Source of the DNA: a virus
Lineage: Duplodnaviria; Caudoviricetes
Length of the DNA stretch: 64,000 nucleotides
Virus record (IMG/VR): IMGVR_UViG_3300014204_013734
Location: 224,001 to 288,000 of that record
Direction: 5' to 3' (one strand)
This document shows, in pieces, positions 19,996-61,912 of the stretch. The position numbers and the translations under genes were made by a program. Below the pieces are notes generated by a model. The model was not told the origin of the DNA. It saw only the letters and a list, made by a program, of their open reading frames with translations, and searched no databases. Position 1 is the first letter of the stretch. Every line of letters begins with the position of its first letter.

Positions 19996-21174
19996 ATGTC
20001 ATCAGATGTACGACTTGCGTGGGTTTGCCCCCACCGGACTTTAGAAGAAGTGGTCGCCTTGCAGGCGGATCGCCGATCCTTGCCGACTCGACAACCAATA
20101 GCTGGAGCCGGGTCTGTTCGTATCACGGCAAATGACGAAGTGCTTATTCCCCAAGGGGGTTTGTTCGTGTCGGCGCAGTTGTCCGGGACCGTGTCAGGAC
20201 CTTTTGACCTTGTGGCCGGAGATGATCGGGTTACGGTGACTACCCCAGCGGGTTCGGAAACGGTTTCTTTGGGTGTGTTGGGAACTACCCGTTTGTCTAC
20301 GGACCAAGTTATTAAAAAATTCCAACAGGCTAATTTCCAAGTCGCTTTGTTGGAAAACATCAACGGGCATTTGGTTTTTTCAGATATTTCTACGGTTGGA
20401 CCTGATTCTTTTGTTCGCATGGACGGTCCGGCGGCGTATGCCCTTGGGTTTGGTTCTATTTCCTGTGGGCCTGGCGACCGGCAACGGATTGCTCGGGGGC
20501 GTCAGGCGTATCCAGGTTGGGGCCTTCAGGTCAGGCAAGACACGATCACGAATCGTTATCCGGTGTTCAATTTCCCCGTGACGGCAAACCCGGTCTTTAA
20601 GGTGTCTTACACGGCGCCTAAAAACCGTTGCTTGCGATGTGGAGGAATGGGCACTGAAAACGATTGGCGCTTCGGGGAAGATGGGCAGATAATCCGAGTA
20701 GAAAATGAAAACCTGCTTTATCAAGCATGCCTGAAAATTCTACTGACTAATCGGGGTAGCAACCCTTATCATACGTGGTACGGTACGACTTTACAAAGTC
20801 GTATTGGGGCCAAGGCGGTCAGTGGCATGTCTTCGCTGATAAGTGAGGATGTCAGAACAGCCTTGGTTAAATTTCAGAATCTTCAGGAACAACAAGCCAA
20901 ATATCAGGTTGTTACATTCAAGGAACGCTTGTATGCCGTCACGTCAGTGCAAGCTACGCCACACACGCAGGATCCAACCACATGGTTGGTAGATGTGTCG
21001 GTTCAGAACGCGTCCGGCGAACCAATTACGTTGAATATTGTTTATACGGTGCCTGGTGTTGTTGCTTTGATGGGTTCAAACGGTCTTTTTATGAATAGTG
21101 ATTCCGCAAGTTTGGATACGGGACTTGTGTCTGTTCCTGGGCAATTGGTCGTTGATGGGATTCTTGTGAGGTGA
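19996..21174 (+). CDS. gp25-like baseplate wedge protein with a long N-terminal extension
   Basis: C-terminal gp25/GPW-like pattern (LYQACLKILLTNRGSNPYHTWYGTTLQSRIG...LVDVSVQN). Start reassigned from 19831 to ATG 19996, which has an AAGGGG SD and avoids the 100-nt overlap. Confidence 0.7.
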   Translation: MSSDVRLAWVCPHRTLEEVVALQADRRSLPTRQPIAGAGSVRITANDEVLIPQGGLFVSAQLSGTVSGPFDLVAGDDRVTVTTPAGSETVSLGVLGTTRLSTDQVIKKFQQANFQVALLENINGHLVFSDISTVGPDSFVRMDGPAAYALGFGSISCGPGDRQRIARGRQAYPGWGLQVRQDTITNRYPVFNFPVTANPVFKVSYTAPKNRCLRCGGMGTENDWRFGEDGQIIRVENENLLYQACLKILLTNRGSNPYHTWYGTTLQSRIGAKAVSGMSSLISEDVRTALVKFQNLQEQQAKYQVVTFKERLYAVTSVQATPHTQDPTTWLVDVSVQNASGEPITLNIVYTVPGVVALMGSNGLFMNSDSASLDTGLVSVPGQLVVDGILVR

Positions 21175-21176
21175 CC

Positions 21177-24100
21177 ATGGCTGATAACTTGAAGACACCC
21201 AGATTTTACGGTCCCGATAATGTGCTTCGGGACACGTTTATCTTCACGACCGATCTGCCTTTTCGGTTTTTTAATGGTGTCATTGACGCTGATACCGTTG
21301 ATATGCAGGTGTCAATTAGGGGCGGTGCCTTCACCAGCGATCCTGATTGGATTGCTTTTGAAGGTACGGAATTCAGCATCCCAAATCCAACGGCATGGCC
21401 TGATGGTCTTCAATTGCTTCCGGGGGACAATTTAATCGAAGCCCGAGCTATCCTTTCCAATGGCGATGTGTCTCCTGTAGGGTCCGTTCTTGCCAAGTTG
21501 TCTCTTGAACGGGATGTCAAGGCTAGTGTCATTGCCCCTTCGGAGATTTTCGTGGAACGCCTGGACGGGGTCGTGAATATTTGGGTCAACGGTTTAGATG
21601 ACCCGAACGTGACCGGATACCTCTTTTACGCGTCCGTTTCCCCTGGGGGGGGAACTGCCGGATACTTGCAGCTTACCCCACAACCGGTTATTTCCGGGCA
21701 AGCCACAGAAGATGTGCAGGGAATGTCCGAAATGACCGTGGATGCCACGGTAGCCACAAATTCAGAAGGGTTGCATGCAGCGGAACCGCTGTTCCTTCGT
21801 GTCCTGCAGGAACAAACTGATAGACAGGGGACTGTCATTCAGACGGATTGTAACCAAGCCACGACGATCCCAGACACGGTTTCGCAGATTCGAACTACCG
21901 TGTCTATCAGTTCAGTTCGAACGACTACCCGATATATGTTTTCTCATAGCCGGCTCGCGAACAATACAATCACATCGTCAAATCCGACGATCCCCCATGC
22001 GGAATTCAACGCGATTCCAGACACGGAACCGTTGTATTACGTAGTCACTGCCCTTTATTTGATTGATGGTGTTGAATACGAATCATCTTTTTCTCCGGAA
22101 GTTGCGGCCGAACCTTTGACCGTTCGTCCTATGGTGTCCGCCCTTCCTGTCGTGACTAGAGAACAGATTGTTAGGTCTACGGTTTTGTCCATTTACCGGA
22201 CACATCCTGAAGTGGATGTTAAAGAAGGTTCCGTTTATCGGGACACGGTGATTGATCCGTTTTCCAGTGAAGCGGAACGTATACGATTCGTCATAGGATT
22301 CATCCAGGCGGCTCAAAGTTTCACTACATTGTTGGCCATTGATGATCCTGGGGATTCGGGAACGTCGGTTGCCGTATCCCTTTCTCCGTACAAACAAGCT
22401 TTGAAGCAGGCGTTCTACTTGTCGACCGACAAGGATGTCCAGAACCTTATTGACAACGCCTTCGATCACATAGCTGCCCGCAGGGGCGTCAAACGTAAGT
22501 ATGGTTCCAGGGCAAACGGTGAATTGGTTTTCTACCTCCTTGCCCGTCCTGCCGTGTCACAGTTCATTCAAATCGGTCAAATCGCGACTTCTGGGGGGAC
22601 CCAATTCCGTACGACATCCGCCGGTTGGATCACCCCTTACGGGTCGGGTTCCGCTTATAGTGCAAAGACAGGCCGATGGGCTGTCCGTCTGTTTATTCAG
22701 GCATCAAATCCTGGGGCGGCTGGCAATGTGGCGGTAGGGCAAATCAGGTCCTTGGTTGGGGGGCCTCCTGGTGTCCTGTGTTACAACGATGCTACGACCT
22801 TCGGCGGGACGGACACGGAAACCAACAAACAACTCGCTACTAGGGCAGATGGGGTCCTTTCTTCGGTTGATACAGGGACATACCGAGGGTACGTTCAGAG
22901 TGGTAATGACATCCCTGGGGTTCTTGAAGCCAAAGTCGTGGATGCAGGTAATTCGCTCATGCTTCGGGACATTGATCCTTCCACGGGCAAGCATACCGGG
23001 GGGAAGGTAGATGTCTGGATGCGTGGTGAAAGTCTGGCGACGATAAGAGACAGTTTTGCCTTTTCCTTTGAAATCGTGGAAAACGGTCAATTTGAACCGG
23101 TAGGGGCATTGTCTGATTTGAAATTCAGAGCGGTAAATTCCAGCATCAGTGCTGACAACCCGATCATTGAAATGCTGGACATACCTGATTGGGGTTATGA
23201 ATTCGTTGATACCCGCACCGGCAAGGTGTTTGATCTTACGGGTGTGACCATCATTCCACCTGACATGATTCAACTTGCCACTTCTTTGAACGATCCCCTT
23301 GACATTGCTATCACTGATTTGTTCACAGGGTCTTATCGTTGGAGGACCAGTAACAGGCATGTATTTGGGCGGCAACCGGTTCGGGAAGTGACGGAATTGG
23401 TAGGTGAAGTGACGGGAACTGTGAACCCCGATTACTACAAGCTCTTCGCCGGGAGTCAACCGCTTGATCTTGGACGTTCCGTTGAAGCGGGGGATTACCT
23501 TCAGGTTATCCAACCACTTGGACAGACTCCCTTGCAAATCCCATCCGGGCAACCGGTCACTGTTACCGGTGAACGTCATGTTATGCTTGACGGAACGGAA
23601 TGGCTTTGGAGTCTTGGCATCAACCCTCTCACGGTCAAGGTTTGGAATCTTGGCCGAACGGTACAATATTGGAGTCCTTACCAACCGGGTGTTGAACCCG
23701 ATTTCACCTTTGTCCCTGAATCCGGCGAAGACCCCCTTGGCATCAAACCTACCGCTCTTTCCAGGATCACGGATGGTGAGGAAGTTCTGGTTGATTACGA
23801 ACACGATGAAAACTTCGTCGTCACCTATTCCGTGAATGCTATTGTGTCGTCGGGACAAGCTGTTTTGGACAACGAAAGGCATGCAACTGCCGATGTTCTG
23901 GCGAAGGAAACACCACAGACTGGCGTTGACATTACAGCAACAATCGTTCTCAAAAAGAACACCAACACGTCAGCGTCCGACAGTTCTGTCAGGACCGCCC
24001 TCGGGCGCCTGTTTGGGACATTCAAGATGGGGACTCCAATCCGGCAGTCCGATGTTGATGCAACCATCAGGCTGGTTTCCAACGTTGCTTATGTAGTATT

Positions 24101-24698
24101 GCCGTTGACGAAATTGGCTAAATCCGACGAGTCCGAAGTTATTTTGGAAGAGGTTACGGTTTCAGCCAAGACGGACTGGTTCAAAATCACGGATTGGTCA
24201 ACCAGTGAAGTTGACATGATCCTTCTGACGGAACCTTTGGAATCAGGAACCTTGGATGGAGGCGGTAATTTCTGGGAACCAAGGGCGGTTTACTTTAACG
24301 AGGAACTTTTAACAACTTGGGACACCCCTCCAGATGCTGACGGGGTTCCTATGAATCGGACGCAATGGGGGGCATTCATTATCGGGAATGGGGGTCTGAA
24401 TATCCCGAAATACAGTGACGATGCTACGTTGAAGGTTAAGTATCCTTTCGCTTCCGATGCGGAAATCATGCAATGGAGGATCACCTTGACGGCTCGTCGC
24501 ATCATTGTAGCCCTCCCTTCTGGAACGGACCCTACGACAGGGACGTGGAAGGCGGATTACATTGTCCATGGCGACACGGGAGTGAAGAATATTGTCCCAG
24601 GACCTATTGAAGTTTTGACACTCGGGAATCTTGAGTTCACATATGACGAGGAACCTGATTTCTCGTCCCAGGTTAGCGGTGGAACACGGAGTTCTTGA
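21177..24698 (+). CDS. Baseplate J-like (T4 gp6 / P2 gpJ) wedge protein (~1173 aa)
   Basis: Baseplate-J motifs: GSVYRDTVIDP, AFDHIAARRGVKR...ANGELVF, GAAGNVAVGQI, TFGGTDTETNKQLATR, GGKVDVW. Confidence 0.8.
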   Translation: MADNLKTPRFYGPDNVLRDTFIFTTDLPFRFFNGVIDADTVDMQVSIRGGAFTSDPDWIAFEGTEFSIPNPTAWPDGLQLLPGDNLIEARAILSNGDVSPVGSVLAKLSLERDVKASVIAPSEIFVERLDGVVNIWVNGLDDPNVTGYLFYASVSPGGGTAGYLQLTPQPVISGQATEDVQGMSEMTVDATVATNSEGLHAAEPLFLRVLQEQTDRQGTVIQTDCNQATTIPDTVSQIRTTVSISSVRTTTRYMFSHSRLANNTITSSNPTIPHAEFNAIPDTEPLYYVVTALYLIDGVEYESSFSPEVAAEPLTVRPMVSALPVVTREQIVRSTVLSIYRTHPEVDVKEGSVYRDTVIDPFSSEAERIRFVIGFIQAAQSFTTLLAIDDPGDSGTSVAVSLSPYKQALKQAFYLSTDKDVQNLIDNAFDHIAARRGVKRKYGSRANGELVFYLLARPAVSQFIQIGQIATSGGTQFRTTSAGWITPYGSGSAYSAKTGRWAVRLFIQASNPGAAGNVAVGQIRSLVGGPPGVLCYNDATTFGGTDTETNKQLATRADGVLSSVDTGTYRGYVQSGNDIPGVLEAKVVDAGNSLMLRDIDPSTGKHTGGKVDVWMRGESLATIRDSFAFSFEIVENGQFEPVGALSDLKFRAVNSSISADNPIIEMLDIPDWGYEFVDTRTGKVFDLTGVTIIPPDMIQLATSLNDPLDIAITDLFTGSYRWRTSNRHVFGRQPVREVTELVGEVTGTVNPDYYKLFAGSQPLDLGRSVEAGDYLQVIQPLGQTPLQIPSGQPVTVTGERHVMLDGTEWLWSLGINPLTVKVWNLGRTVQYWSPYQPGVEPDFTFVPESGEDPLGIKPTALSRITDGEEVLVDYEHDENFVVTYSVNAIVSSGQAVLDNERHATADVLAKETPQTGVDITATIVLKKNTNTSASDSSVRTALGRLFGTFKMGTPIRQSDVDATIRLVSNVAYVVLPLTKLAKSDESEVILEEVTVSAKTDWFKITDWSTSEVDMILLTEPLESGTLDGGGNFWEPRAVYFNEELLTTWDTPPDADGVPMNRTQWGAFIIGNGGLNIPKYSDDATLKVKYPFASDAEIMQWRITLTARRIIVALPSGTDPTTGTWKADYIVHGDTGVKNIVPGPIEVLTLGNLEFTYDEEPDFSSQVSGGTRSS

Positions 24699-26089
24699 TG
24701 CCAGACCAACCAGACAACACGACATTTCTGCCGGATTTAGTTCCGCAGAATCCTGCTCCTATCGGGGACAGTCAGGGGCGTAAAGATGTGGTCCGAGACC
24801 AGGTTGACCACATCATGGCGGTTTTCAGCAAGGTGTTGCCTAGCAACTACATTGATCAGGTTTCCGGATCATTCCATTCCCTTCAATTTCAAGCCATGGC
24901 GGAACGGATTGCCGATTTTCAGGTTACGGCCCAAGAAGTATTTGTAGATTCTTTCCACGAATATACGCGACCTGAATTTTTGTGGCAAATCATCGGGGCT
25001 TTGGTTTTCCCTGATGCTAAGACGGATGGTTGGCCTAAAATTGAAGGCGATCTCAGCTACAGGGAATTCGTTCGTCGGATGGTAGAACTCCTGCTCCAGG
25101 GGTCAAAAAAAGAAACCTTGCAAGAAGGTATGGCCCTTCTAACGGATGCTACGGTAGAAATCATTGAATGTGGCATTGAAGCAAGAAAACTAAAGGGAAA
25201 ATCCGCCTGGGGTCCTGATGAGCAATTCACTTTTGAAATAAACATCAGTCAGGAAAACGGGACCGTGGACGTTGATGGCGTTCAAGTTCCTTTGTGGAAG
25301 TTTCCTGACGATCCTTTCACTTTGTTTCGGAATGCACAAATCGTCCTCCGGGCATTGAAACCTGGGCACACCCTCTATGATTGGCGGTATTTGTTCCGGG
25401 AAACCTTTGGGGCACTGTTCACCGATACTTGGTCTTTCACCTGGGAAGATTATCACTACCAGGATTTCAGGCGTTGGTGGCTCGGTGCCGCCAGGATGAC
25501 GGGTTCTTCAGGAACGACCCTTTCGGATCGGACGTTGTTCAGTGATACGACACGGGATTTCACAGCTATAAAACCCGGTGCGACACTTCGTATTCTGGAT
25601 GGTGTAAATTCTGTCAATGACGGCAAGTTGGGGGCTACAAATTCCCTGACGGAGGAAGAATTCCCTGGTTATTTCAGGGTTGTGGAAATCAGGACCTTTC
25701 CGGTCGGGGATGATCCAACCCCTCGGGCTTATACTACTACTCCTTCAGGTTTGTCAGGGACCGCAACTGTGGAGGATGGAAACATCGTCGATCTTTTCCA
25801 GAATTGGGCTTTGGTTGTAGAAGGGGAAATCTTGACCTTTTCGGCAGGCCCAAATGCCGGAAACTACCGACTAAAAACCTTGATTGGGTTGCACGGGGGG
25901 CCAATTGGGGTTCCTACGGCAACTGGACCTTCAACGAAGGTACGTCCGGCCCCCAGTCTCCTTCGTGTTCGGCGTAGAATGAAGATGGCTGTTTCGGGGC
26001 AGAGCTGGGAAGTTGTTGTTGACAGATTGGGTATGCAGACGCCCCGAAGGGTGTCTGGGGAAGACGCTACGCCTTGGTTTGTGAGGTGA
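24698..26089 (+). CDS. Baseplate wedge protein, gpI/gp7-like (~463 aa)
   Basis: Follows the J-like gene with TGATG coupling. YREFVRRMVELLLQGSKKE and LRALKPGHT resemble gpI-type signatures. Confidence 0.6.
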   Translation: MPDQPDNTTFLPDLVPQNPAPIGDSQGRKDVVRDQVDHIMAVFSKVLPSNYIDQVSGSFHSLQFQAMAERIADFQVTAQEVFVDSFHEYTRPEFLWQIIGALVFPDAKTDGWPKIEGDLSYREFVRRMVELLLQGSKKETLQEGMALLTDATVEIIECGIEARKLKGKSAWGPDEQFTFEINISQENGTVDVDGVQVPLWKFPDDPFTLFRNAQIVLRALKPGHTLYDWRYLFRETFGALFTDTWSFTWEDYHYQDFRRWWLGAARMTGSSGTTLSDRTLFSDTTRDFTAIKPGATLRILDGVNSVNDGKLGATNSLTEEEFPGYFRVVEIRTFPVGDDPTPRAYTTTPSGLSGTATVEDGNIVDLFQNWALVVEGEILTFSAGPNAGNYRLKTLIGLHGGPIGVPTATGPSTKVRPAPSLLRVRRRMKMAVSGQSWEVVVDRLGMQTPRRVSGEDATPWFVR

Positions 26090-26109
26090 TTCGTCTATGG
26101 GAACCCCTT
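26087..26109 (+). promoter_or_regulatory. Recurring intergenic motif copy 2
   Basis: TGA-TTCGTC-TATGG-GAAC-CCCTT. Confidence 0.45.
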
Positions 26110-26154
26110 CCGTAGGTTCCTTGGGTTTGAAATTAGAGGTTTGGAGAAAGACAC

Positions 26155-29100
26155 ATGCCGGCCAACATTCAGGTTGAAGTTTGGAGAGGCGGGGTTCGGG
26201 TTATCGGTCCGGTTACCAACACCAGCGTTGAAAACCTGTGGAAATCCGATGAAGTCCGTCTGTACTGTCCTGACGACAACCAGACTTCTTACAGATGGGA
26301 CCTTTCCTACACTCCGCTGGGAGCGCATGGTGATCCGGTAACCGATGTGTCCAGTGCGGTTCTTGATACCCCGGACGCCCAGTCTTGTAAATTTACGGTT
26401 GACTGGGATGGTCCATACATTGTCCGGTTGGTCATCAACCGCGGCGATCCCTTAACTGAAGATACCAAATTCATTCGTGCCCGAATCGGTACTTTGTTCG
26501 GTGGGGTCAAACTTGTGGGTGCCGGAGAACGGCGAACGACCGCGCCTTACGTTCCTGTTGACGCGTCTACCGTTGGGTGGACGAATGATATGAATACCAA
26601 CATGGCAAAGATACTGGCAGGGGTCCGTCGTCTGTCCGTATCGGGTCGTATCTTGTACGTGGACGCAAATCGTCCTCTTGGGTACAAAAATGACCAAACG
26701 ACCAACCCTCCGAATGACCCTACGAAAACCGTACGGTTTCCTGGCACTGATTCAACGAGTGTCAGTACGATGCAGAAGACGGGCGTGGAAATGCCGACCG
26801 TCGGGTTTGGGGATTTTGGGACCATTCAGGATGCTATTGATTGGGCGTATGGAGCCGGACGGGCGGCGCCGGTCAAGTGGGCACGGCCAACGGAAGAGAT
26901 TGCGTCGGCCTTGAATCCTTTCTGGATTGTCATTCAGCCGGGGCTTTACGAAGAAAATCTTACCTTGCGGGAACACATTCACCTTTCCGCTGGAGGTTCC
27001 CCACAGAAATCTGCGGTTATTCCGTTTATGGCGTTCGGATCCGCGAGCCTGATTTTGCGTTCTACTTCCGTTATCATCCGGCCAAAAGTTAACGTGTCCC
27101 ACCACGGGGGGCATGTATTCAACGCTCCCAGAATGCCGGAATTCAACCCCTTGGCCCCAATGCCCGCTCCTGTTGTTACGTTCTTGGAAAACTGTCCTGT
27201 CATTCAGATTTCCGGCATCACGATGGAAGTCCGCGATTATTGTCTTGACCCGATGATCACCGTCACGGGGACCGCATTCCTGTCATTCAGCGATTGCAGT
27301 GTACTTTCTACGTCCACTGAATTGCTGCAAGGTCCTCTCTTCAAGTTCCTTAATCCGGTGCAAGGGACAGCTACTTCACCCAATATCCAAATTGACTTGT
27401 TGGGTTGGGTCAGCAAAGACACTTTTTACGGATATTCAGCAGTGACCGGAGGGTCACATGCTGATAGGTGCGCCGTTTTGTTAGATAGTCGGGTAGCCGT
27501 GTTTCATGAAGGTGGTTCTGGCATGGCTGATGCAGTGGAAGGGGGTTTTATCCGGGCGGCATCGGATATGTACACTGCAGGTCCGACCAATATCGGATGC
27601 AAGGCGGCGTTTAGTTCCTTGCAGTTTTTCAACTCCATTTTCGGCGGGACCCTGCTGTTTGAAGGGTTGGTAGAAAGCATCTATTTTGACAATTGCGACA
27701 CCGGCGGCGGTGTCGGACCTGTCTTCATCAATTCGGATGTTGTTCTTCCGGCTCCTCTGGAATTTAGCCCCAGCATTGAATTTAATGGAGGTTCCCTTTG
27801 GAATAAGGTGCAGGTCAACGGGGATTCTTTGATGGCGGGATATCAGTGGACTATTTCTCCGAGGCTTGTTTACGGTGCCCGTGAAGTTTTTGTGTTTCGG
27901 GGGGATTTGAGCCGGATATATTGCGGATGCGACAGGCTTTCAACATCAACCATGGGGTACATAGCGGATTATGCGCGGCCGGAAAACGGTCACGAGGGGA
28001 GTTCTTCCCATCCGGTTTTGCCGGTAGGCCAACCTTGGCCCGTCCTGCCTGGAGGAGAAATTTCTGCTCTCCGGATGCAAGATGTCATGGATACTGTTGT
28101 ACGCCTGACAACCCCGGAAGATGCAAGTGCAAGTCCGGCTACGCCTCCGGATAACAGCGGTGTCACTGCGAGTTGGACACCCACTCTGAATGCAAATTAT
28201 GCCGGTATTTGGGGGTTTGACACTACCGACAAGCAGCGTGGTTTGAATCCGGTCCAGGGGCGGGGTGTCGGTCGGAAGATCAACGTCGTGCGGGATGGCG
28301 GTATCACAGGTACGGACCTTCCCGTTCAATTGCGTCCTCATCCCAACATTGCGGATCCTTTGAATGTGCATCTGTTCCGTGTTGGGGCTGATGCAACATC
28401 AAGTCACGTAGATCTTGGTTTCGTAATGAACGGCATGAACCCAGCCCTCAAAGTTTGGGGTGATGTCGTAGCTGACAATATTTCTGGGGGTGGTTCTCCT
28501 GGTGGTGTCAAGATCGTTGCAAAGTCCGGGGCTCCTTACACAACGATCCCTGCGGCGCAGGCAGCTTGTGTAGCAGGTGATGTCATTGTCGTGTATCCAG
28601 GTACCTATACGGAAACGGTCACGAATTTGATCAATTCCGTCGTCGGGATAGGCATGCCTGTTGTAGGACCTATTTCAATGGGTCAAACAGGGATGGGCAT
28701 GCGCTATCTGGTGTTGGATGGAATCACCATCGCCAGCATGGACACCGTAGCATTGACCGTGACAAGCAATTTATTCGGGGAATTGACAGTACACAATTGC
28801 CGTATCAACGCCAGCCTCAACAACGCGGTTCCCTTACCAGCAGTGGGGGTAGCCCCGGCTATGTACATCGGGTTGATTACGAGTGCGAAGATCACGATTG
28901 TCGATACAGTGTTCAACATCATTTCTTCCAATGTCGGTAAGTCGTCCGGACTTGTTTGTGTTCCAAACCTTGAAAACTACCTTACCTTGTCAGGGGTGAC
29001 CATGAACCTCCAGCAAGGGCCCGTGACACAAGACGTATCGTGCATTGAATGCTGGACGAACATGTGGGCTACCGTGCGTGATTGTAATTTCCAAATTACG

Positions 29101-29364
29101 ACGAACCCCTTGAATCTTGGGGCTGTGTGCTGCATCCATCATGATGGACTCAGATACATGCGGGTAATAAACGTTCACGTTCAGGTGTGGACGGGTTCCC
29201 CTCATGTTTTGGGCGGAACCTGTTGGGTTCTTGACGAAAACACTTCCGTTATTCTGGAAAAGAATGTGACGTATAACCTGGACAACGGTAATTTCAGTTT
29301 GCCGGTGTTTCACACCGGCACGGGTCAGATACGCATCATCCCGAGTGAAGGTTCCTTGGTGTGA
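26155..29364 (+). CDS. Tailspike-like protein: N-terminal PKD/Ig-like domain plus two pectin-lyase-like beta-helices (1069 aa)
   Basis: SYRWDL...CKFTVDWDGPYIVRLVIN is PKD-like. Two beta-helix cap motifs: GDFGTIQDAID...IQPGLYEENL and APYTTIPAAQAACVAGDVIVVYPGTYTE. Confidence 0.65.
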   Translation: MPANIQVEVWRGGVRVIGPVTNTSVENLWKSDEVRLYCPDDNQTSYRWDLSYTPLGAHGDPVTDVSSAVLDTPDAQSCKFTVDWDGPYIVRLVINRGDPLTEDTKFIRARIGTLFGGVKLVGAGERRTTAPYVPVDASTVGWTNDMNTNMAKILAGVRRLSVSGRILYVDANRPLGYKNDQTTNPPNDPTKTVRFPGTDSTSVSTMQKTGVEMPTVGFGDFGTIQDAIDWAYGAGRAAPVKWARPTEEIASALNPFWIVIQPGLYEENLTLREHIHLSAGGSPQKSAVIPFMAFGSASLILRSTSVIIRPKVNVSHHGGHVFNAPRMPEFNPLAPMPAPVVTFLENCPVIQISGITMEVRDYCLDPMITVTGTAFLSFSDCSVLSTSTELLQGPLFKFLNPVQGTATSPNIQIDLLGWVSKDTFYGYSAVTGGSHADRCAVLLDSRVAVFHEGGSGMADAVEGGFIRAASDMYTAGPTNIGCKAAFSSLQFFNSIFGGTLLFEGLVESIYFDNCDTGGGVGPVFINSDVVLPAPLEFSPSIEFNGGSLWNKVQVNGDSLMAGYQWTISPRLVYGAREVFVFRGDLSRIYCGCDRLSTSTMGYIADYARPENGHEGSSSHPVLPVGQPWPVLPGGEISALRMQDVMDTVVRLTTPEDASASPATPPDNSGVTASWTPTLNANYAGIWGFDTTDKQRGLNPVQGRGVGRKINVVRDGGITGTDLPVQLRPHPNIADPLNVHLFRVGADATSSHVDLGFVMNGMNPALKVWGDVVADNISGGGSPGGVKIVAKSGAPYTTIPAAQAACVAGDVIVVYPGTYTETVTNLINSVVGIGMPVVGPISMGQTGMGMRYLVLDGITIASMDTVALTVTSNLFGELTVHNCRINASLNNAVPLPAVGVAPAMYIGLITSAKITIVDTVFNIISSNVGKSSGLVCVPNLENYLTLSGVTMNLQQGPVTQDVSCIECWTNMWATVRDCNFQITTNPLNLGAVCCIHHDGLRYMRVINVHVQVWTGSPHVLGGTCWVLDENTSVILEKNVTYNLDNGNFSLPVFHTGTGQIRIIPSEGSLV

Positions 29365-32300
29365 TTGGAAGACTGCCACAAGTCACCCTTCCAAGGGACT
29401 GTTTTGCAACAGGACCGTTTGGGGCAGGCCCGTTCCCGCCTCCGGGTTGGGAAAACCTCCTTGGATGTCCCGCGAACCCGGACAATGCCGGGTTCGGAGG
29501 CGTTGCGTGGACGACCTATCCAATTCCGGAAGACCTTCCGGGCGGGGGGTTGTTCGGGCTTTCCCCGTTTGGTAGTGTCGTGACCCCGGCCCCGCCTATT
29601 CCGGTTGACAGGATGGTTCCGGTCCGTATGGGAGCCCCAACCAGGGACGGGGGGGATCTTGGTGGTGATTCCGGATGGGGCGGTATGGATTGGGGCGGTG
29701 ATCCGTGGGGTCTTGGCGGTAGTGCGGCGGCAGGCCTTTTGGAAGGTGCTGTCAGTCTCAACGGATATGAAATTGAAGTCTTTTTTTCTGAAGGTTCCGG
29801 ACCAACTTCGGCGTCTGCTTACGGTCTTGCTCCCATTATGGGAGCGCCTTCAACGGTTGTTGATGCCCGGCAAACGAGCGTATCCATCATCATCACGCAT
29901 ACTGGAACTACCCTCGGGGGTTTCTATACGCTGAGTGTGTCCTTGGATACGGGAATAGAATCGGTTACGCTTTACACGAAAGGGGATATGCCTCCCTTTG
30001 TCATCCAACCAACAGATTCAGGTGAAGATATCGTTTTCACCTTTGCTGAACGGATGCTTACGGCGGCGCAGGGATCGGACATTGATGATCCAGCTTCATA
30101 TGGGTTCACTTCGGTTCCAGACTATCCTATCTTCTTAACCCCAACCAGGATAGATCATCCTTGGACCGGGAACGCCGCCAAAGTTCATATGACCGTCAAG
30201 GGAATGACTTCGCTGCGTTACGGTTGCAAGATCAGTCCGGCGTTGGCATGGAATTGGACAGGTGCAGTTCTGCCGTCAGAAGATCCGACTTTGGATGGCA
30301 GGGAAGTGAATCCCGGTCAAGGGACTTCAACCATCGCTGAAAACACTATGTGGTTGTCCAGACCGATTTTCAACGTTTACGGTTGGGAATTCTTGGACTT
30401 GTCTGGACGGTTGACGACGACAGCAACGTTCAGGGCGGACTTTGAGTTCAATGCGGAATCCATGATATGCCACCCTCCAATTTTGGCGTTTGATAACCCG
30501 AAGGTCGGGGACCTCATTGTAGAAGACGGACCTGGCGGAACCCGTATCAACATTCAACTTCGGCAATCTCAAAACGAAGATTGGCTCCGAATTTGGAGTG
30601 GGACTTTCAATACGTTTATTCGACAGCCGTGGAGTATCGGGACGAACGTTATTACGGTCATCCGGAACACGAAGGCAGGCATTTGGGCATTCCTTTTTAA
30701 CGGAACCCCCTTCTTATCCGTTCTTCTTGCCGACCTTGACGGACCTGCGGAAGGGGATGCCCCTGGTGTGATCTGGAAGTTTGTCGGGGACGAATGGTTC
30801 AGTCTGGAAGCATTCAATCTCCGGAATGTGAAGGTCACGGCCAGTTCTACCGTGTGGTCCGGTAGTTGGAATTTCCTGCACGAATCCATGTCGAATTTCA
30901 CGGGTAGTGCCATCCTGGCTCGCGACCACGTTATGACTCGGCGCGGGCCCCTTGTCAAAGATTGGGGTGACGCTACTCCGGCTACGAAAGCGGATGTCAG
31001 TGTTTTGGTGTGCGGTGTTCCAGTAGGTGTGGCGGACGTGAACCCCTTCATCGGAAAAATCATTCCCGACATTCCTATCCCTATGATGCCTTTGGGGGAT
31101 CCATTAGGGGATGTGAAGTTGGATTACTACTGGCAGGCCAGTCCTGTTATGGGAATGGTTTTGAACATGCCCGGTCTTGTTATGGGTCAGTGGGACAGGA
31201 AGGACATAGGTCCGCACTATCCGGTAGAACACGGGCAACCTTATACCGCTTGGGTAGAAAATGGAGTATTAGAAGGGTTTATCATTCCCGAACCCGCGCA
31301 TGATTTCCCCAAATGCCGTGTCTGTGGGTCTGATTTGGTTGACCTGGGCCCTCCGTTTTGGTGGTGTGTCAATCCAACTTGTGCGAATTTCCATGTGAAG
31401 CTGATTCCGTCGTGGGAAGACCTCAATCCGGTACGCTTCCCGATGGGGACGGTATTAGGTCCGGTGTCCCGACCTGATCCTTTGCATATTGGTCATCGGT
31501 ACATTGGATTTCAGCGTGAATATTCCGCCCTCCTCGGTAGCCCGACTACCTTGTTGTTGGGTGTGAATCCAATGGCGTCTTCTGTTGACAATTTCAAACG
31601 TGACGTGCAGGGGATTTCTTTTGTATATGACGGGACTGCCGCCCCGAATTTATCCGATCCGGTCTGGTCCTTGACGGGAACCGATTCCGGTCATTTGGAT
31701 GTCGGGGAAGGTACCTGGACATTGGTAGACGCCGACCCTGGCCCTTGGACTCCTGTTGATCCGGCGGTAGCTTTGTGGGGCAAGGAAATTGATCTGACGT
31801 TTCCCGCCGCCATCACGGTAGTCACCCGTTTTCAGATTGAAGATGCTGACAATCTGTTCGGTACGGATGCAAACATTCTTCAGCCGGACGGTGTATTTAC
31901 CGGTGTCGGATTTGGTGTTCACGACAATCACAGGCTTTGGCTTGCTGGAACGTTGCTGGTTAACGGTTTGCAACATGTCGGGATGTTGCTGGATGCCCGA
32001 CGCATTCACTTCCTTGACGGATGGTATGTCGGACCATTAGCGGTAACAACTTTTGATGATCGGAACACCTTCCGTTGGACAACTGCTGACGCGCCTTCTG
32101 ATTTCCAGGCGGGACGCCGGTTCCAGATACTTTCCGGTCCTCAGATGGGAGTCTGGACTGCATCTACGGTCCTTCGTCATTGTGACGGCACGATGACCGT
32201 AACAGTTGACACGCCTTTACCTGCCGACCCGACCCGTTGGGGGTGTGGATCAGCAACCGTTGTGTTTGAAACCCCATGGAGCGGAAAACCTTCCACTTAT

Positions 32301-35300
32301 CGTCTTGTGGTTGATTCTGATCAAGATGTAGCTACGCTGTCCTTATCAGGAGCAACCACGGCAATTATTGCGACACTTGATGGGCAGACCGCTACTGTCC
32401 CCATTCCTGCCGAAACTTCCTTGATCCTTGATTTGACAGGAAAAGGTCAGGTTTTTTGGGGGTCTTTGAGCACTCTTGCAACCAACCGGTCCAAGTGGTC
32501 CTTCGTGCAGACCGGAGTTGCTCCTGATTTTTCAACCCTTTCGGCGGGGTCCGTCCGAGTCGCCACAGAAATGAGCGACCTGCCGGAAGATGATCCCAAC
32601 AATCCGTGGTTTGTAACACAGGGTTTTGGGGATGACCATGTCATTTCTGCTGGAAATCTTGCTATGAAATCCATCGTGTCCAGTGAAACCTTGGACACGA
32701 CTTTCGGATGGACCAGAATAGAGCCCTTTCTGGCAGGTGATGCCAGGGTTGATGCTAGGGCAATGTTCCGTGTTGATTCTGGTACGGCTTCCTCTGGAGA
32801 TGCACAGATTGTCATCAACAACGGCAGCAAGGAAGTCAGGTTGGCGACCTTAGTCTATGCTGAAGGTTTCACGGGAACGGAATACCGGCAATTGGTCAGC
32901 ATGCCTTCTGTTTCCGCGTCCGGCATTATGGATCCGGCCGTCCAGGGATGGACTATCGTTCCAGGTTCCGCCGGGACTTCTTCCAGTGATGAATGGGATT
33001 TGACGGTTACCGCGGGTTCCGGGGTTTCTCGTCGGTGGTTCGCCAATTTGGATGCAACCAGCCTTGGGGCCTTGGATTCAGGTTGGCGCATTTTTGAAAT
33101 GCAGGTCGCCGTTGATTCTTTCACCCCGGATGGTTCCGGGAATGTCGGTATTGGATTGGATGCGGATATTGATACAACCCACGCCCTGGGAATCCGATTG
33201 AAGTCCCCTGGGAAAGTGCAGTTGGTTGACGATACCGGAACGTCCGTTCAGGAATGGACATTTGATTGGGAAGACGGGGATTTCCATTCTTTCCGGGCTT
33301 CCGCCATTTCTGGTGTTGTGTCATTGGCCATTGATGATGTCATTCAGACTCCGACTTTAACTACGGCTTCTTTCTTGGGGGGGTCTGGGGGAAACCTGTG
33401 TGTGTTCGGGGTTTCGTCTCCTTCCGGGGCTTCCAGCGTAACACGGTGGCGGGCAACTGCATTTTCCTGTGTACCTGGGGCTTCCTGCCATAGAACATTC
33501 GGCATCTGGAAGGGGGGGGATGTTGGGTACTTAAATTCCTGGGAAATCCCCAGGACGGATGATACGACGGCCCCGAATTCAGCCGAATTCGGACCTGTTG
33601 TTCAGGATATGGATTGGCAGGCGGGTCCGGTTGAAACACGTCTTCTTTTCGCTCCCGATTGGGGTGTCACATTTTATCGTCCCGACCTTCCATTGCCGCC
33701 CTATTATCAGCCTGAATCCGGAACCCCAGGTACGGGATTCGCTAACCAGATGAATGAACCGTCGGCAGGATGGATCAACGTGGAATGGCCTGATATTCCT
33801 TTGGTTCCATCAACCTTCGGATTTGTGTCGTTTGGAGCTTTGGAAAATGAATCTTCTACGCGTCAGCGTTGGAACTGGGTCCGTTATCGTATCTTCAAGG
33901 CCCTTTTGGAAGATCACATAGCCCCGCAGCATATGGTCATTGGTCAGGCGGGTGTGACGACCAGCGGCGAAATCACAAAAGACGTGGAACAAGAAGTTGT
34001 CATCGTCCAAACCTTGACGGCACAAAGCTTGACCCTTCTTCCTACCAACCTGAACGCCGCTTCCATTTGGAAGGTAATAGACGGCGCCCGTATCCTGACA
34101 CAGGAATCGTGGACCTTTGACATTGGATTGCAGATACTTACGTTGAATGACGGTATTCTATTTTCATCGGAACATGCTGCCGTTACCGTAGTGTTTATTC
34201 CGGGGTTGCCGAATACAAAAACGTATCTTCAGGTTCAGCCCCTTTTGGATAGCATCACGCTGCTGAACGAAGGAACTCCTCCAGTTCCCCAAAGCCAGAC
34301 AATGGCGTCGGAAAAAGAAATTGTTTACGGGTCATTGTTAGGGGATCCAAATGCCCCCTTGGGTGGAATCCTTCTTCTGAATGATCCTTATCGGGTGTTG
34401 AAGTTGAAAAATGATCCTTCATCCCTGTACGAAAACCTGGAATTTATTCAGGTTACTAATGGGGGCTTTTCCGGCGGTATTGCCATTGCCGGGGAAGGAA
34501 TGATCGGCCAAGGATTTTCCGGTTGGTCTAATGCCAAGGAAGACATTCCAAGCGGGCTTTCGGCTGAAGGTGACGATGTCATTTACGAACCATCAGGGGC
34601 GGGTAGTGTCGGCAGTATAGGGTGTGAAGGAGAAATCCCCGGATTCAAGGGCAGTACGCCTTTGTGTCCGACTGATGAAGTAGTTGGCAGGGCGGTAGGA
34701 GCCCATGTCATGGATTTCCGCGGAACCATGTTCTGGCAGGAAAATAAGACTCCGGCGCGCGAAGATTTTGAACAAGGCGCCGGGATGCCGGGTTGCTTCC
34801 TTTACGCTTCAGGCGGTTCCTACATGGGTCCGGTGGTAGACAGCCAAGGCCAAATCATTGGTTCTGCTCCGCTTGGGGGCCATATCGGTCCAGGTTGCGC
34901 CGTTCTCATGCCCAACTTCCCGTCCAACAATGTTGTGGCGGGTCGTGATGGGGGTAAGGTTCACAGACGAACGGAATGGGTCATGCAGTTGCGTTCCGTT
35001 TCCCGCATTGTGGCAAATTCTGTAGGCGGGTATACGGTAGTGGATATTCCGTTGCGGGAGACTGTTCAATGGCCAGGGGCGGATAATGTTCCGCCAAGCA
35101 GACCGTCTTCCTGGAGGGACAACCCAAGCGGTTTGCCCAACCCCAACGGACGGGGTGCCGTTCTTATGGTTATGACCGGGGCTGGGGATTATTCCCACGT
35201 CGGTCCTTGGGGAGGTTTAGGTTCTTTGACACCGACACCTGATTCAGGATTCTTTGAATTTGACCCTGCCGCCCTTCAAGACGGGGATCAGGTAGCTGTT

Positions 35301-35756
35301 GAAAAGGAACCTGGAGGTATTTCCATCCTCTTTACCGCTAGGACGGTTCCGACGGCCCCTCGGGAGTTCGCCATAGCACCTTCGCCGCATGTGAACTTGG
35401 CGAATGTCATCAACACGGATCCGGTAGCCGGGGCGTTGGTAACGGCAACAGCGGGATTGACATGGACGGGGGTTCCTTCCGTTCTGGTAGAGTCGGTCCT
35501 GCCGGTAACAGCAACTAACATGGTGACAATTTGGAGTGGAAATGTCGCTGCCATTTGGCTGGTTGGGGTCATCAACGAACCGGCCGGAAGGGGCTTGTTG
35601 ACGGGAGGGGCGAAGATAACTCAAAGTTCCTTGATAGCAGGAGGTTATTCTACTGTTCCCGGTGGATTCCATGACCCGAAACTTGGTTTTGTCTGTCTCG
35701 GAGGAACGGTGCTTCCTGTAGGGCTGGAAACCGTCAGGATCGTTTATTCTCCGTAA
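29361..35756 (+). CDS. Large virion structural protein (2131 aa), very Trp-rich
   Basis: GTGA overlap with the upstream gene. Gly-aromatic N-terminal repeats, beta-sandwich-like segments and an internal Cys4 ribbon. Confidence 0.7.
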   Translation: MIGRLPQVTLPRDCFATGPFGAGPFPPPGWENLLGCPANPDNAGFGGVAWTTYPIPEDLPGGGLFGLSPFGSVVTPAPPIPVDRMVPVRMGAPTRDGGDLGGDSGWGGMDWGGDPWGLGGSAAAGLLEGAVSLNGYEIEVFFSEGSGPTSASAYGLAPIMGAPSTVVDARQTSVSIIITHTGTTLGGFYTLSVSLDTGIESVTLYTKGDMPPFVIQPTDSGEDIVFTFAERMLTAAQGSDIDDPASYGFTSVPDYPIFLTPTRIDHPWTGNAAKVHMTVKGMTSLRYGCKISPALAWNWTGAVLPSEDPTLDGREVNPGQGTSTIAENTMWLSRPIFNVYGWEFLDLSGRLTTTATFRADFEFNAESMICHPPILAFDNPKVGDLIVEDGPGGTRINIQLRQSQNEDWLRIWSGTFNTFIRQPWSIGTNVITVIRNTKAGIWAFLFNGTPFLSVLLADLDGPAEGDAPGVIWKFVGDEWFSLEAFNLRNVKVTASSTVWSGSWNFLHESMSNFTGSAILARDHVMTRRGPLVKDWGDATPATKADVSVLVCGVPVGVADVNPFIGKIIPDIPIPMMPLGDPLGDVKLDYYWQASPVMGMVLNMPGLVMGQWDRKDIGPHYPVEHGQPYTAWVENGVLEGFIIPEPAHDFPKCRVCGSDLVDLGPPFWWCVNPTCANFHVKLIPSWEDLNPVRFPMGTVLGPVSRPDPLHIGHRYIGFQREYSALLGSPTTLLLGVNPMASSVDNFKRDVQGISFVYDGTAAPNLSDPVWSLTGTDSGHLDVGEGTWTLVDADPGPWTPVDPAVALWGKEIDLTFPAAITVVTRFQIEDADNLFGTDANILQPDGVFTGVGFGVHDNHRLWLAGTLLVNGLQHVGMLLDARRIHFLDGWYVGPLAVTTFDDRNTFRWTTADAPSDFQAGRRFQILSGPQMGVWTASTVLRHCDGTMTVTVDTPLPADPTRWGCGSATVVFETPWSGKPSTYRLVVDSDQDVATLSLSGATTAIIATLDGQTATVPIPAETSLILDLTGKGQVFWGSLSTLATNRSKWSFVQTGVAPDFSTLSAGSVRVATEMSDLPEDDPNNPWFVTQGFGDDHVISAGNLAMKSIVSSETLDTTFGWTRIEPFLAGDARVDARAMFRVDSGTASSGDAQIVINNGSKEVRLATLVYAEGFTGTEYRQLVSMPSVSASGIMDPAVQGWTIVPGSAGTSSSDEWDLTVTAGSGVSRRWFANLDATSLGALDSGWRIFEMQVAVDSFTPDGSGNVGIGLDADIDTTHALGIRLKSPGKVQLVDDTGTSVQEWTFDWEDGDFHSFRASAISGVVSLAIDDVIQTPTLTTASFLGGSGGNLCVFGVSSPSGASSVTRWRATAFSCVPGASCHRTFGIWKGGDVGYLNSWEIPRTDDTTAPNSAEFGPVVQDMDWQAGPVETRLLFAPDWGVTFYRPDLPLPPYYQPESGTPGTGFANQMNEPSAGWINVEWPDIPLVPSTFGFVSFGALENESSTRQRWNWVRYRIFKALLEDHIAPQHMVIGQAGVTTSGEITKDVEQEVVIVQTLTAQSLTLLPTNLNAASIWKVIDGARILTQESWTFDIGLQILTLNDGILFSSEHAAVTVVFIPGLPNTKTYLQVQPLLDSITLLNEGTPPVPQSQTMASEKEIVYGSLLGDPNAPLGGILLLNDPYRVLKLKNDPSSLYENLEFIQVTNGGFSGGIAIAGEGMIGQGFSGWSNAKEDIPSGLSAEGDDVIYEPSGAGSVGSIGCEGEIPGFKGSTPLCPTDEVVGRAVGAHVMDFRGTMFWQENKTPAREDFEQGAGMPGCFLYASGGSYMGPVVDSQGQIIGSAPLGGHIGPGCAVLMPNFPSNNVVAGRDGGKVHRRTEWVMQLRSVSRIVANSVGGYTVVDIPLRETVQWPGADNVPPSRPSSWRDNPSGLPNPNGRGAVLMVMTGAGDYSHVGPWGGLGSLTPTPDSGFFEFDPAALQDGDQVAVEKEPGGISILFTARTVPTAPREFAIAPSPHVNLANVINTDPVAGALVTATAGLTWTGVPSVLVESVLPVTATNMVTIWSGNVAAIWLVGVINEPAGRGLLTGGAKITQSSLIAGGYSTVPGGFHDPKLGFVCLGGTVLPVGLETVRIVYSP

Positions 35757-38249: not shown

Positions 38250-41200
38250 ATGTCTGTTAAAGACCGCACCCGGCGATATGACGGGATCCGGGACATTACC
38301 GGAGCCGTTCCGGTTCCAAACGCCGTCTCCCGAGACATGCAGTTCGGCGACCGTGCGTTCACCGGAACCATCTGGCAATCTGGGAAACCTGTTCTGGATT
38401 CCGAATTGGCCATGCACCAGGATTCCGCTTGGTGGGAAAACTACCTTCTCCGTCGATGGCAAGTGCCTTCAGGCTGGCTTCGTGGCCAGTCTCGGCAAGA
38501 TGCCCGGACGGATTGGGTACTCGGTATCATCCCCGATGGGGATCCTGTCCCGAACGACTGCACGCCCACGACATCTGTCGGCGGCGGGCATATTCACTAT
38601 CCTCAAACCATTGGGGAACCTGCCGTATTGATGGATGCTTTGGCTCTGAAACGGGTTGAAGCTATCGTAGCCGGATTGCCTATTGTCGTTGAATACGCTT
38701 GGACAGATACGGAAGGGTTTAACTTGATCGTTCTGGAACCACCTCCGTCTGACCAGCAGCACGGGGCTATTCCCAGGACGGATTTTGTATTTTTGGAAGT
38801 TTGGCTTGCCTTGGTAGCTCCGAGCCCGAAGGCTACAGGTCAAGTCCAGGTAGACGCGATCCTTATGTTGGACGGGGACACTTTGTCCGTTGGGGGAACG
38901 GCCCTTGTCGGGCGTACAAGTGTCGTACCCGGCACCTTCTACATTGACACGACCAGCAGCACGGTGACGGCAACCAATATTGCCAACGCTCTTAATACCA
39001 TTGCCCCGTTCAGTACGTTGGTTGCGGCGAAGTCCGCTATTGACGTAGTAACGATTGAAGCGTTGGAACCCGGGGCAACAGGAAATTCCATCACCTTAGC
39101 CAAGTCTTCGGCGGGCCTTCAGGTTTCTGGTCCAACCCTTGTAAACGGGGCAGACCGGCCTAACAAACCTGCTACGGAACAAGCAAAACTGTATCGTCAC
39201 GGTTGTACCCAATCCCCATCAGCAACTTGGTTAGATGATGAAATCGTTGATCCGGTTGTTGATTCTGAAACGACACAGCGCATTCAGGTGCAGTGGCGCA
39301 TCCGTACAGCAACGGATGATGCAATCAACTACAAAATCCATCCTGACGGATTTTCCAACGGCGACAGTGGTTCCATAGGCGGTTCCATCGGGACCCCGAT
39401 GATCACAGCACAGGGTGCTACGGTAGCCCCGGTTGTCGGATACCCCTTCGTGCCGGCAGATAAGACATCCATTTGGTTGAATTCTTCTGCTCCAGCCTGG
39501 GGTGTTGACGACAGCGGTTTGTGGGTTGCCGGGGACGGTTCCAACGAAGCCGTGAAGGATTTAGGGACTTTGGACGGATTCGTTTACGCGATCCCTATGG
39601 CTTTTGTATTCAGGCACAATGATGTTTCTACGGATGCCAGTGGGTGGACGGCAGCGCATAACGCCAATGGTGGCCCATTGTTCCTGCATTTGGGTTACAC
39701 GACTGGAGGCAATGGGCTTGGAACGATTCCGGCCGGTCTTTCTGATCGTCCTGATGGGGGCTTTTCGGATGTTGTTGATGGGGAATATTTGTTGGATCTT
39801 CGCAGGAATGTGTTGTTCCAGGGGGTTGATACGGCTTCCGAATTGGATTATCAAATCCAGTCTCTTTTGGACGGCAACAACCGGACCTGGGCAATTGATT
39901 CCGCTACCAAATACGGTTCGCAATCCCTTCAAGCCGATGTTGGAACTCGGTTCCTTATCTGCAATGTGATTGGTCGTGACCCGTCCGACCCCTTCACTGC
40001 CGATGTAGGTGAATACATCCGGAACTTTGACCATGTTTGCCGTCGGTTTGCTGGACAACCGGTCGTTGAACGGGTCGTGTTCGCCTTCTGGCCTGGGGAC
40101 AGGGATTCCGGAGTGCCAGTCGCTCCCGGTCTTGTCAACCCAGGCAAATATGTGACCAAGACGGGTTCCACTTCCACTTGGGTCAAAGGGGATGTTCTTC
40201 ATCTTGATCTGTCCAAATGGAATGTATCTACCAACGGCAGCATCTTCCATGGCGGGGATGGTGGTGGGGCGTCCGAGTCCGGTTTGAATTGGACAGATGT
40301 CATTCCTGACGGTACGGCTATTACGGACGTATTGTCCATTTGGCATGATGACGGTTTTTGGTCTTTGAACCCTCTGGATGCTATTGACCAGCGGTGTCAT
40401 CCTGATATTGTCAAGGGACTCGGAACTCCGCATCTTGAAATCCATTTGGATGAAAACACGTCGGTCGCTAATGGCGGTTTGAATGGGGGAACCCCCCGTT
40501 CCCTTGTTGCTCTTTCTCCTGCAACCGGATCTCCACGCAGGATATTTGTTGAAGTTGAAATCACCTATCCGATGGGTATTGGCACCACGGACACTCCTAT
40601 GTGGCCCGTTACCCCCGATTCTACCGTTTGGAATGGGACTGATACAGGTCACGCAACCACTCAGTTAAGGCCCGGTCCTGGCCCTCAACTTGTGGCTGAT
40701 GTCACGTGCATTCCGGTAGACCAGTCTACACGTCTTGCCCCGAGATTCCGGCAGGGTTTTCGTGAAATCCAACTTGATTACGCGGCCAACGGGAAGGATC
40801 ATACGCCCCAAGCGGCAACGCAAGTTTCAGAAAATCCGGCTGTTGAGCCTTTGATGGGGATCGTCAGCCGGACAGATTTGACCCTATATCCTCCGCGGCG
40901 ATTTTGGGATGATGGCGTAGTAGGGCACGGGTTGATCGTCAAGGACGTGTCAAGCGGCGGCCCGGTCACGATGACGGTTTTAGTTGATACCACGGACTAC
41001 GGAAGCAGTTCCCGATTGGTGACTTTGACGCATCCATTGTCATCGCCGCAAGCTTTGTGCCGGTTTGATTATTATGCCCAAGACCCGATCCCGAACTACG
41101 GGACGGATGTTGGTTATACCGTGGCTGTCTACTATCGGGCGTCAGCCCCGCAGACGGCAGGTATCATTGAAGGGGACATGACTACCGGTGGTGGTCAGGG

Positions 41201-45736: not shown

Positions 45737-45760
45737 TGAACAGATTATAGCCTTCGCCTT
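45737..45760 (+). promoter_or_regulatory. Degenerate copy 4 of the intergenic motif, overlapping an SD-sequestering hairpin
   Basis: TGA-ACAGAT-TATAG-CCTTC-GCCTT. CCTTCGCC can pair with GGC(A)GGAGG at 45762-45770. Confidence 0.35.
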
Positions 45761-45774
45761 TGGCAGGAGGAACA

Positions 45775-61899: not shown

Positions 61900-61912
61900 A
61901 GGTTTCTTCCTT

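Follow-up and report, generated by a model that had tools for sequence, protein, structure and literature searches.

Tyrosine replaced by tryptophan in the baseplate and fibre proteins of a large phage clade: a possible trace of a past amber-reading phase

Why should conserved tyrosines (Tyr, Y) in the baseplate and fibre proteins of a phage have turned into tryptophan (Trp, W), when their codons, TAY and TGG, are joined only via the stop codon TAG or the Cys codons TGY, and the change, needing two steps, is normally rare? The question is raised by a 64,000-nucleotide stretch, here called the window, which comprises bases 224,001-288,000 of the 381,280-bp record IMGVR_UViG_3300014204_013734 (50.6% GC). 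It holds a baseplate/fibre operon encoding J-like, sheath-initiator-like and gpI-like proteins and several giant family-less proteins; the terminase, portal, major head protein and sheath are all encoded upstream. A first-pass annotation of the window had claimed an inverted W:Y ratio in two proteins of this operon, with systematic replacement of Tyr by Trp, and had used a lipoprotein as a control of normal composition. Exact counts bear out all three compositions, and the Tyr-to-Trp change is real and stronger than was then stated. Coordinates are those of the window unless labelled as genome coordinates (G000), which belong to the phage's 381-kb record and are numbered separately.

24698..26089, plus strand: gpI-like baseplate wedge protein, 463 amino acids (aa), 12 W/10 Y.
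29361..35756, plus strand: 2131-aa protein of the baseplate/fibre module, 65 W/36 Y, the strongest signal.
61315..61968, minus strand: lipoprotein, the control gene, 3 W/13 Y, of ordinary composition.

The 65 W among 101 W+Y residues of the 2131-aa protein depart from the ratio of its family (p=5e-12) and from that of its own genome (p=3e-4); for the gpI-like protein, 12 W among 22 W+Y, the corresponding values are p=5e-4 and p=0.30. The W/Y ratio of the 2131-aa protein is 1.8, as against a median of 0.45 and a maximum of 0.75 in 99 homologues, and that of the gpI-like protein is 1.2, as against a median of 0.26 in 117 homologues; values above 0.5 occur in just 3 of 120 gpI-like proteins, namely those of this phage and of the two phages nearest to it. 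Genome-wide, W/Y is 0.88, compared with 0.62, 0.68 and 0.58 in three syntenic relatives (60-62% GC); two partial sister genomes, representing mostly structural genes, have 0.36-0.40. An independent assembly of 444,386 bp encodes an identical 2131-aa protein, and hence the pattern is no assembly error; DNA near-identical to that of this phage occurs in landfill and groundwater sequencing runs.

Is this a directional change or merely a compositional one? Changes were polarised by site-pattern counts among extant sequences (sister and outgroup majorities), and the affected block is the baseplate/fibre module at 4-60 kb of the window, where about one-sixth of the conserved Tyr residues are now Trp (71/443). 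From 133 Tyr residues conserved in the sister and outgroup majorities, 86 remain Tyr, and 24 have become Trp, 10 Phe, 5 His and 8 others. Tyr-to-Trp is thereby the commonest polarised lineage-specific change (24/444), with Val-to-Ile the next named (16); conversely, 24 of 28 new Trp residues derive from Tyr, and the polarised set contains no Trp losses. The ratio of Trp to Phe among the outcomes from Tyr is 24:10 in this lineage and 30:158 in relatives (p=4e-10). Pairwise over the whole block, Tyr-to-Trp differences outnumber the reverse by 93 to 8 against the sister phage, whereas the same count in control pairs gives 12/12, 14/16 and 10/12; the asymmetry recurs in all 79 further relatives compared with this phage. 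The source of the new Trp is equally specific: within the block 16% of Tyr sites became Trp, as against 0.18% for Arg, 0.16% for Gly, 0.18% for Ser, 0.9% for Leu and 1/49 for Cys, all one-step neighbours of TGG. Cys itself stands at 3 of the 443 conserved Tyr sites, and ancestral Trp was kept at 98/102.

The change was indifferent to conservation. Near-invariant and variable Tyr columns changed alike (7/24 vs 34/86, p=0.47), as a codon-level process would lead one to expect, and the changed sites include columns that are 93-98% Tyr; in the test on near-invariant columns, 18/24 had Trp in no relative. At columns of the changed type Phe is eightfold commoner than Trp among the relatives (6.4% vs 0.8%). 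Of the 30 columns in which Tyr makes up at least 70% across the 99 homologues, 11 are Trp in the 2131-aa protein, where any other homologue has at most 2. All eight swap motifs listed by the first-pass annotation are present, with Tyr opposite each Trp variant in 4-5 of 5 (or 4 of 4) relatives. Its central claim of a systematic and directional replacement thus stands: neither of the outcomes named beforehand as speaking against it, Trp-bearing homologues and symmetric exchange, was found. Three codons illustrate the point, the first being common to all three members of the clade described below.

26006..26008, plus strand: TGG for Trp437 of the gpI-like protein; Tyr in 115/117 homologues, Trp in none.
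32154..32156, plus strand: TGG in GPQMGVWTA of the 2131-aa protein; Tyr in 96/99 homologues, Trp in none.
32709..32711, plus strand: TGG in DTTFGWTRI of the 2131-aa protein; Tyr in 93/99 homologues.

We found no report of such a Tyr-to-Trp sweep in a literature search beyond whose reach most subscription journals lay, and searches with single Trp-rich queries likewise yielded nothing.

Which phages share the trait, and where in their genomes does it lie? It is present in three lineages only, namely this phage, L021 (~80% identical to it, 50% GC) and L150/L366 (70-80% identical, 63% GC), which together form a clade of ~440-kb phages whose stem measures 0.27 substitutions per site. Most derived Trp residues are common to the clade members (30/40 are shared with L366), and the sweep arose largely on the common stem. 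Tyr/Trp exchange also stayed raised inside the clade, as judged from L366: this phage differs from it by 8 Tyr/Trp and 11 Tyr/Phe exchanges, as against 64:707 in close control pairs (p=1e-4). The comparison with L021 (2:11) is not significant, the within-clade numbers being small. Within the genome the change is concentrated in the block. Polarised by two relatives, it affects 31/236 Tyr in the block vs 19/497 elsewhere (p=1e-5); polarised with the sister, 41/270 vs 9/277 in the head block, the sister lineage's own rates being 2/197 and 2/250. In the low-copy genes of the block, the ancestor's Tyr codons went to TGG at about 15 times the sister-lineage rate. By gene class the counts are 71/443 in the block, 18/336 in non-structural genes and 16/363 in head and other late genes, among which the sheath (2/51), portal (0/17) and terminase (0/23) changed little; the sheath is identified from PHROG, its structure model having a pLDDT of 33. 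The rate outside the block, ~5%, is still about threefold that of control lineages, and overall divergence is similar across regions (0.20-0.26). The genes of the block, besides the two above, are the following.

4178..15889, plus strand: 3903-aa protein of the same module; 18/107 conserved Tyr now Trp.
16110..19013, plus strand: 967-aa protein; 2/19.
20050..21174, plus strand: sheath-initiator/baseplate wedge protein (PF10934, weak; phrog_120); 1/14.
21171..24698, plus strand: baseplate J-like protein (PF04865, phrog_6); 7/41.
26155..29364, plus strand: variable 1069-aa protein between the gpI-like and 2131-aa genes, 19 W/28 Y; 2/11.
38250..41885, plus strand: 1211-aa protein with RIQVQWRIR; 8/34.
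41895..45731, plus strand: 1278-aa protein; 5/30.
45760..52389, plus strand: 2209-aa protein with a weak beta-helix match (spike/fibre-like); 5/32.
53323..59859, plus strand: 2178-aa paralogue of the 1211-aa protein, with GYSWAIP; 6/61.

By the same per-gene count, 14/52 conserved Tyr residues of the 2131-aa protein are now Trp. This protein matched no Pfam or PHROG family, and an atlas search with it gave only matches below 0.9; its presumed baseplate/fibre role is assigned solely from its place in the baseplate operon. In the gpI-like protein, the N-terminal part of an AlphaFold model (pLDDT 74.6) resembles baseplate triplex subunits, with weak Foldseek matches to the baseplates of phiCD508, Mu, diffocin and Bas63 (E 0.002-0.06). 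The J-like protein, which had been described as close to normal, has 19 W as against 4-7 in orthologues outside the clade, and clade members differ between Tyr and Trp at several of its sites; similarly, several Trp residues of the 1069-aa protein are lineage-specific within the clade. The effect is uneven, as the first-pass annotation had noted, the block being the stronger part, although its reach is wider than was then supposed, covering 4-60 kb of the window with a weaker component genome-wide.

The concentration in one module is not explained by local context. With crude sequence proxies, strand-like and helix-like Tyr changed alike (15-18% in the block, ~5% outside), Tyr residues with Gly at -2 changed at 11/50 sites in the block and 0/53 outside, and a tyrosine-corner or beta-strand context, having no effect, was rejected as the cause. 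A second component is distinct from the sweep: loss of Tyr to residues other than Trp (Phe, His, Cys) is about doubled in most regions, with counts for this phage vs the relative G001 of 44 vs 22, 57 vs 26 and 25 vs 14. The chaperonin, for instance, lost 4 of 5 conserved Tyr, to His, Phe, Phe and Cys; with W7/Y1 it had itself been a candidate for the Tyr-to-Trp change, which we rejected since its Trp content is normal for the family and only Tyr was lost.

Are the new residues really Trp? The first-pass annotation had considered a non-standard decoding of TGG, and if the codon were now read partly as Tyr, many of the changes would be silent; the changed columns that are almost uniformly Tyr would fit such a reading. 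A tabulation of the residues opposite TGG, which it had recommended, indeed finds consensus Tyr facing TGG at 15 of 71 columns, but Trp dominates (W 42, Y 15, F 9). Consensus-Trp columns hold TGG in 42/44 cases (95%) and are not being lost, and consensus-Tyr columns hold TAY in 87/134; in the glutamine synthetase GlnA of the phage, the invariant Trp is TGG and the invariant Tyr TAY. The tRNA(CCA) has a short variable arm, an anticodon arm common in phage tRNA-Trp, and G73 and G1-U72, both named as Trp identity elements (PMC8629427). The anticodon arm also resembles that of the phage's tRNA-Tyr, but derivation of the tRNA(CCA) from a tRNA-Tyr was rejected: another 56 viral records have the same arm, and a trait-free relative has the short D-arm. 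Further, no class-Ib synthetase (PF00579) was found in the 381 kb available of the 444-kb genome, to which the searches for tRNAs below also apply. Since TGG fills the Trp columns, the tRNA(CCA) is of the Trp type and no class-Ib synthetase was found, the derived TGG codons are most likely read as true Trp. A partial reading as Tyr, which would require the TAG step all the same, thus seems to us scarcely credible.

If the residues are Trp, selection on the proteins themselves comes into consideration. In this case exposed Tyr in the baseplate and fibres would have become harmful, owing to host or environmental Tyr chemistry, proteolysis or a change of receptor, with Trp rather than Phe keeping the polar aromatic role; a large population would have crossed the two-step path by way of Cys or through double hits. 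The confinement to one functional module, the retention of derived Trp between clade members and of ancestral Trp, and the lack of any trace of recoding today all favour it. Nevertheless, the relatives prefer Phe, which is one step away, by a wide margin at the same columns; the rate is independent of local context, as the Tyr residues preceded by Gly illustrate; the sheath, likewise exposed, was spared; and the one-step routes to Trp went unused. On balance we regard such selection as a rather unlikely, though serious, alternative.

Pressure against the Tyr codons, without any change of code, would arise from a host that destroys tRNA-Tyr, in the manner of the PtuAB system of retron-Eco7, from which a phage tRNA-Tyr rescues; the accessible text of that study concerns tRNA supply (PMC11555353). 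As there, our phage encodes a tRNA-Tyr, a known counter-measure, and Tyr is the affected residue; the genome-wide doubling of non-Trp Tyr loss and the fate of the chaperonin Tyr also agree. However, the accessible text describes no Tyr-to-Trp change; such a nuclease predicts Tyr-to-Phe change rather than Trp, and the strongest loss in high-copy late proteins, whereas the sheath kept 43/51 Tyr and has more Tyr in place of Phe than that of a relative (2 vs 11); and trait-free relatives carry a tRNA-Tyr as well. As the sole driver, which the first-pass annotation had entertained, it is therefore unsupported and in our view improbable; it could be the source of the weaker Tyr loss seen across the genome. 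That the sweep is a side effect of bias at the DNA level (depletion of TA and GAG/CTC with an excess of GG) is very improbable too. TA is depleted to rho 0.49 and GAG to rho 0.38 in all frames and intergenically, and both Tyr codons contain TA. Against this, relatives with equal or lower TA are normal (TA 0.36, W/Y 0.15-0.4), L366 at 63% GC shows the sweep but not the GAG depletion, the block itself is the region least depleted in TA (0.54 vs 0.47), and one-step TGG neighbours were not converted; TA/GAG avoidance was accordingly rejected as the cause of the Trp gain. Thus neither TA avoidance, nor one-step TGG neighbours, nor local structural context, nor Tyr-codon avoidance alone explains the sweep. 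Some probability remains for causes that we have not thought of.

What, then, bridged the two codons? Judging from the sequences, we tentatively favour, as a possibility that is not proven, that an amber phase of the late genes, past or leaky, led from TAY through TAG to TGG. With somewhat more reserve, we suggest that the clade may descend from a phage that read TAG as Tyr (or Trp) in its late tail genes and later abandoned this code, the sweep being the fossil of the reversal; a phage code with TAG as Tyr or Trp has not yet been described. TAG would have been readable for a time late in infection through an amber tRNA, most simply a tRNA-Tyr with the anticodon CUA. The single step from TAY to TAG would then have cost little in late low-copy genes, and early genes and those of the high-copy shell could not have afforded TAG. 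Once suppression weakened, was lost or changed identity, every TAG would have been forced out, and the TAG-to-TGG transition would have yielded an aromatic residue in one step, with neither a Cys nor a dead-stop intermediate, which could be kept. Where TAG persisted until the three lineages separated, each may have resolved it in its own way, giving the Tyr/Trp differences within the clade, and the roughly twofold loss of Tyr to Phe, His and Cys would be a separate, parallel process.

We favour this bridge because the new Trp residues come from Tyr and not from the one-step neighbours of TGG, and because TAG is the sole bridge other than Cys, which is rare at these sites. It would explain which residue was gained and in what direction, why conservation made no difference, why late genes of low copy number were hit most and why some sites disagree between clade members; the raised Tyr/Trp exchange inside the clade also counts in its favour. 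In recoded phages, the recoded stops sit in late structural and lysis genes, in tail genes especially (10.1101/2021.08.26.457843). Support also comes from CUA tRNAs, which both near-complete relatives, G001 and G003, encode at one syntenic spot.

241943-242033 of G001 (L318), minus strand: Tyr-like long-arm CUA tRNA, after a histidine kinase/response regulator pair.
158402-158477 of G003 (L353), minus strand: Lys/Trp-like short-arm CUA tRNA, at the same syntenic site.
Genome 82940-83027: tRNA-Tyr(GUA) of this phage, from a tRNA scan; tRNA-Tyr also occurs in relatives without the trait.
Genome 58222-58888 (L065:1200-1866): short class-1 release factor of this phage, with PxT and GGQ motifs and without the N-terminal domain.

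The two look unrelated. In 16/22 hits the G001 molecule matches tRNA-Tyr, and its C1-G72, A73 and long arm are like those of G001's own tRNA-Tyr; that of G003 resembles Lys, Arg and Trp tRNAs. The classical amber suppressor supF is likewise a tRNA-Tyr with a CUA anticodon, and the G001 tRNA, by its predicted identity, would be the very molecule that the amber bridge needs; unlike supF, it is charged with Tyr by prediction only and belongs to a phage that lacks the trait and ends 35% of its genes with TAG. TAG is likewise an ordinary stop in G003.

Several observations weigh against an amber-reading past. ARAGORN, Rfam and stem scans found no CUA tRNA in the 381 kb available of this 444-kb genome, and a remnant amber tRNA, looked for at the syntenic site, was not there. 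All open reading frames (ORFs) of the block are open in table 11, no tail-module gene here or among the relatives' orthologues has an in-frame TAG, and no recoded genome appeared among 222 related loci, in a screen whose low-coverage flags were not TAG-specific and were read as opposite-strand genes, not each of them checked. TGA is the main stop (192/301 genes), and TAG still ends 26/301, three of them inside the block; the encoded release factor is RF1-like (PxT motif), not RF2-like. The changed codons are followed by no purine bias, and other exits from TAG show no clear excess: Gln is minor as a source of Trp (1/305) and no notable fate of Tyr. Documented recoding of TAG in phages, moreover, is to Gln, not Tyr or Trp (10.1101/2021.08.26.457843). 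Conserved ORFs contain two internal TAG codons genome-wide, neither in the block, and no internal TGA at conserved sites. One of the two speaks for the amber bridge: it lies in the otherwise intact gene of a LemA-like/virion membrane protein (genome 60480-61109, minus strand; L004:483-1109), at 60951-60953, opposite a Trp of the G001 orthologue; a second study's contig also has TAG there, and a third study has TGG in one contig of depth 2, a possible error. This site carries little weight, since a lone TAG at a Trp position is also the lesion seen most often in pseudogenes (PMC8629427). The other, at genome 307352, follows DPPY in a DNA methylase, with a 9-base insertion relative to G004. The amber-reading phase, which the first-pass annotation had listed among possible drivers, thus emerges as the best-fitting one on support that is indirect.

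Some further features of the genome deserve mention. The release-factor gene, inside a tRNA cluster, is split by a prfB-like CTT TGA +1 frameshift site; two runs list no difference at the locus, and a release-factor domain was not found in the relatives G001, G003 and G007. A tRNA-Leu at genome 86128-86214 (minus strand) has the anticodon AAG, unusual in bacteria (A34 or inosine is needed), and no tRNA-Asp was found in the 381 kb. GAG/CTC depletion is strong throughout G000, L021 and L147, on both strands, in all frames and intergenically (rho 0.38), with GAA:GAG at 8:1; CTCGAG and CAGCTG are absent, and ATGCAT, CGATCG and CCTAGG are rare. The depletion is not seen in the 63%-GC clade member, and it points to a host system that targets DNA by a three-base motif. 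In the chaperonin region of L248 (ERZ27247363), a 64%-GC relative, TA depletion is extreme (rho 0.20) and Tyr makes up 0.8%. A ROS/MUCR-domain endonuclease-like gene is inserted into the baseplate operon at 36489-37457, and a second ROS/MUCR gene lies at genome 205210. Auxiliary genes outside the window encode the chaperonin, a type I glutamine synthetase (GlnA, with matches scattered across phyla), CoaD, RtcB, a macro domain, SAM decarboxylase, ThyX, several DNA methylases, and a histidine kinase with response regulators.

How does the sweep compare with known departures from the standard code? Late-gene recoding is documented for TAG as Gln (code 15; crAss-like and Lak phages) and TGA as Trp (code 4) (10.1101/2021.08.26.457843). 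As in those phages, the signal here lies in late structural genes and most of all in the tail, replication genes are nearly untouched, and amber tRNAs occur in the family. Unlike them, the clade has no in-frame stops in tail genes, the implied residue is Tyr or Trp rather than Gln, and this genome shows no amber tRNA in 381 kb; the code would have been abandoned or leaky, seen only through its amino-acid scar. Because the defining in-frame stops are absent, the phage is no member of the code-15 or code-4 groups; the late-gene confinement typical of code 15 is found here for the Tyr-to-Trp signal only. The sense-codon reassignments detected by Codetta, of CGG/CGA to Trp and AGG to Met (PMC8629427), resemble our case in that a codon stands opposite an unexpected residue. 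They differ in that TGG is still the sole Trp codon, with a tRNA of Trp identity, and that the effect is module-specific.

What is at stake is whether phages can give up a recoded stop codon again and whether TAG can stand for residues other than Gln, which present-day genomes cannot answer directly. If the proposal is true, a lost phase of TAG as Tyr or Trp predicts a one-way Tyr-to-Trp excess in late genes, as is seen in this clade, and the sweep would offer a computational way to search genomes of standard appearance for codes since lost. Even under protein selection, a lineage where a two-step change across a stop codon outruns Val-Ile exchange, in a single module and at sites close to invariant, is an unexplained exception to the substitution models on which phage phylogeny and homology search are built.

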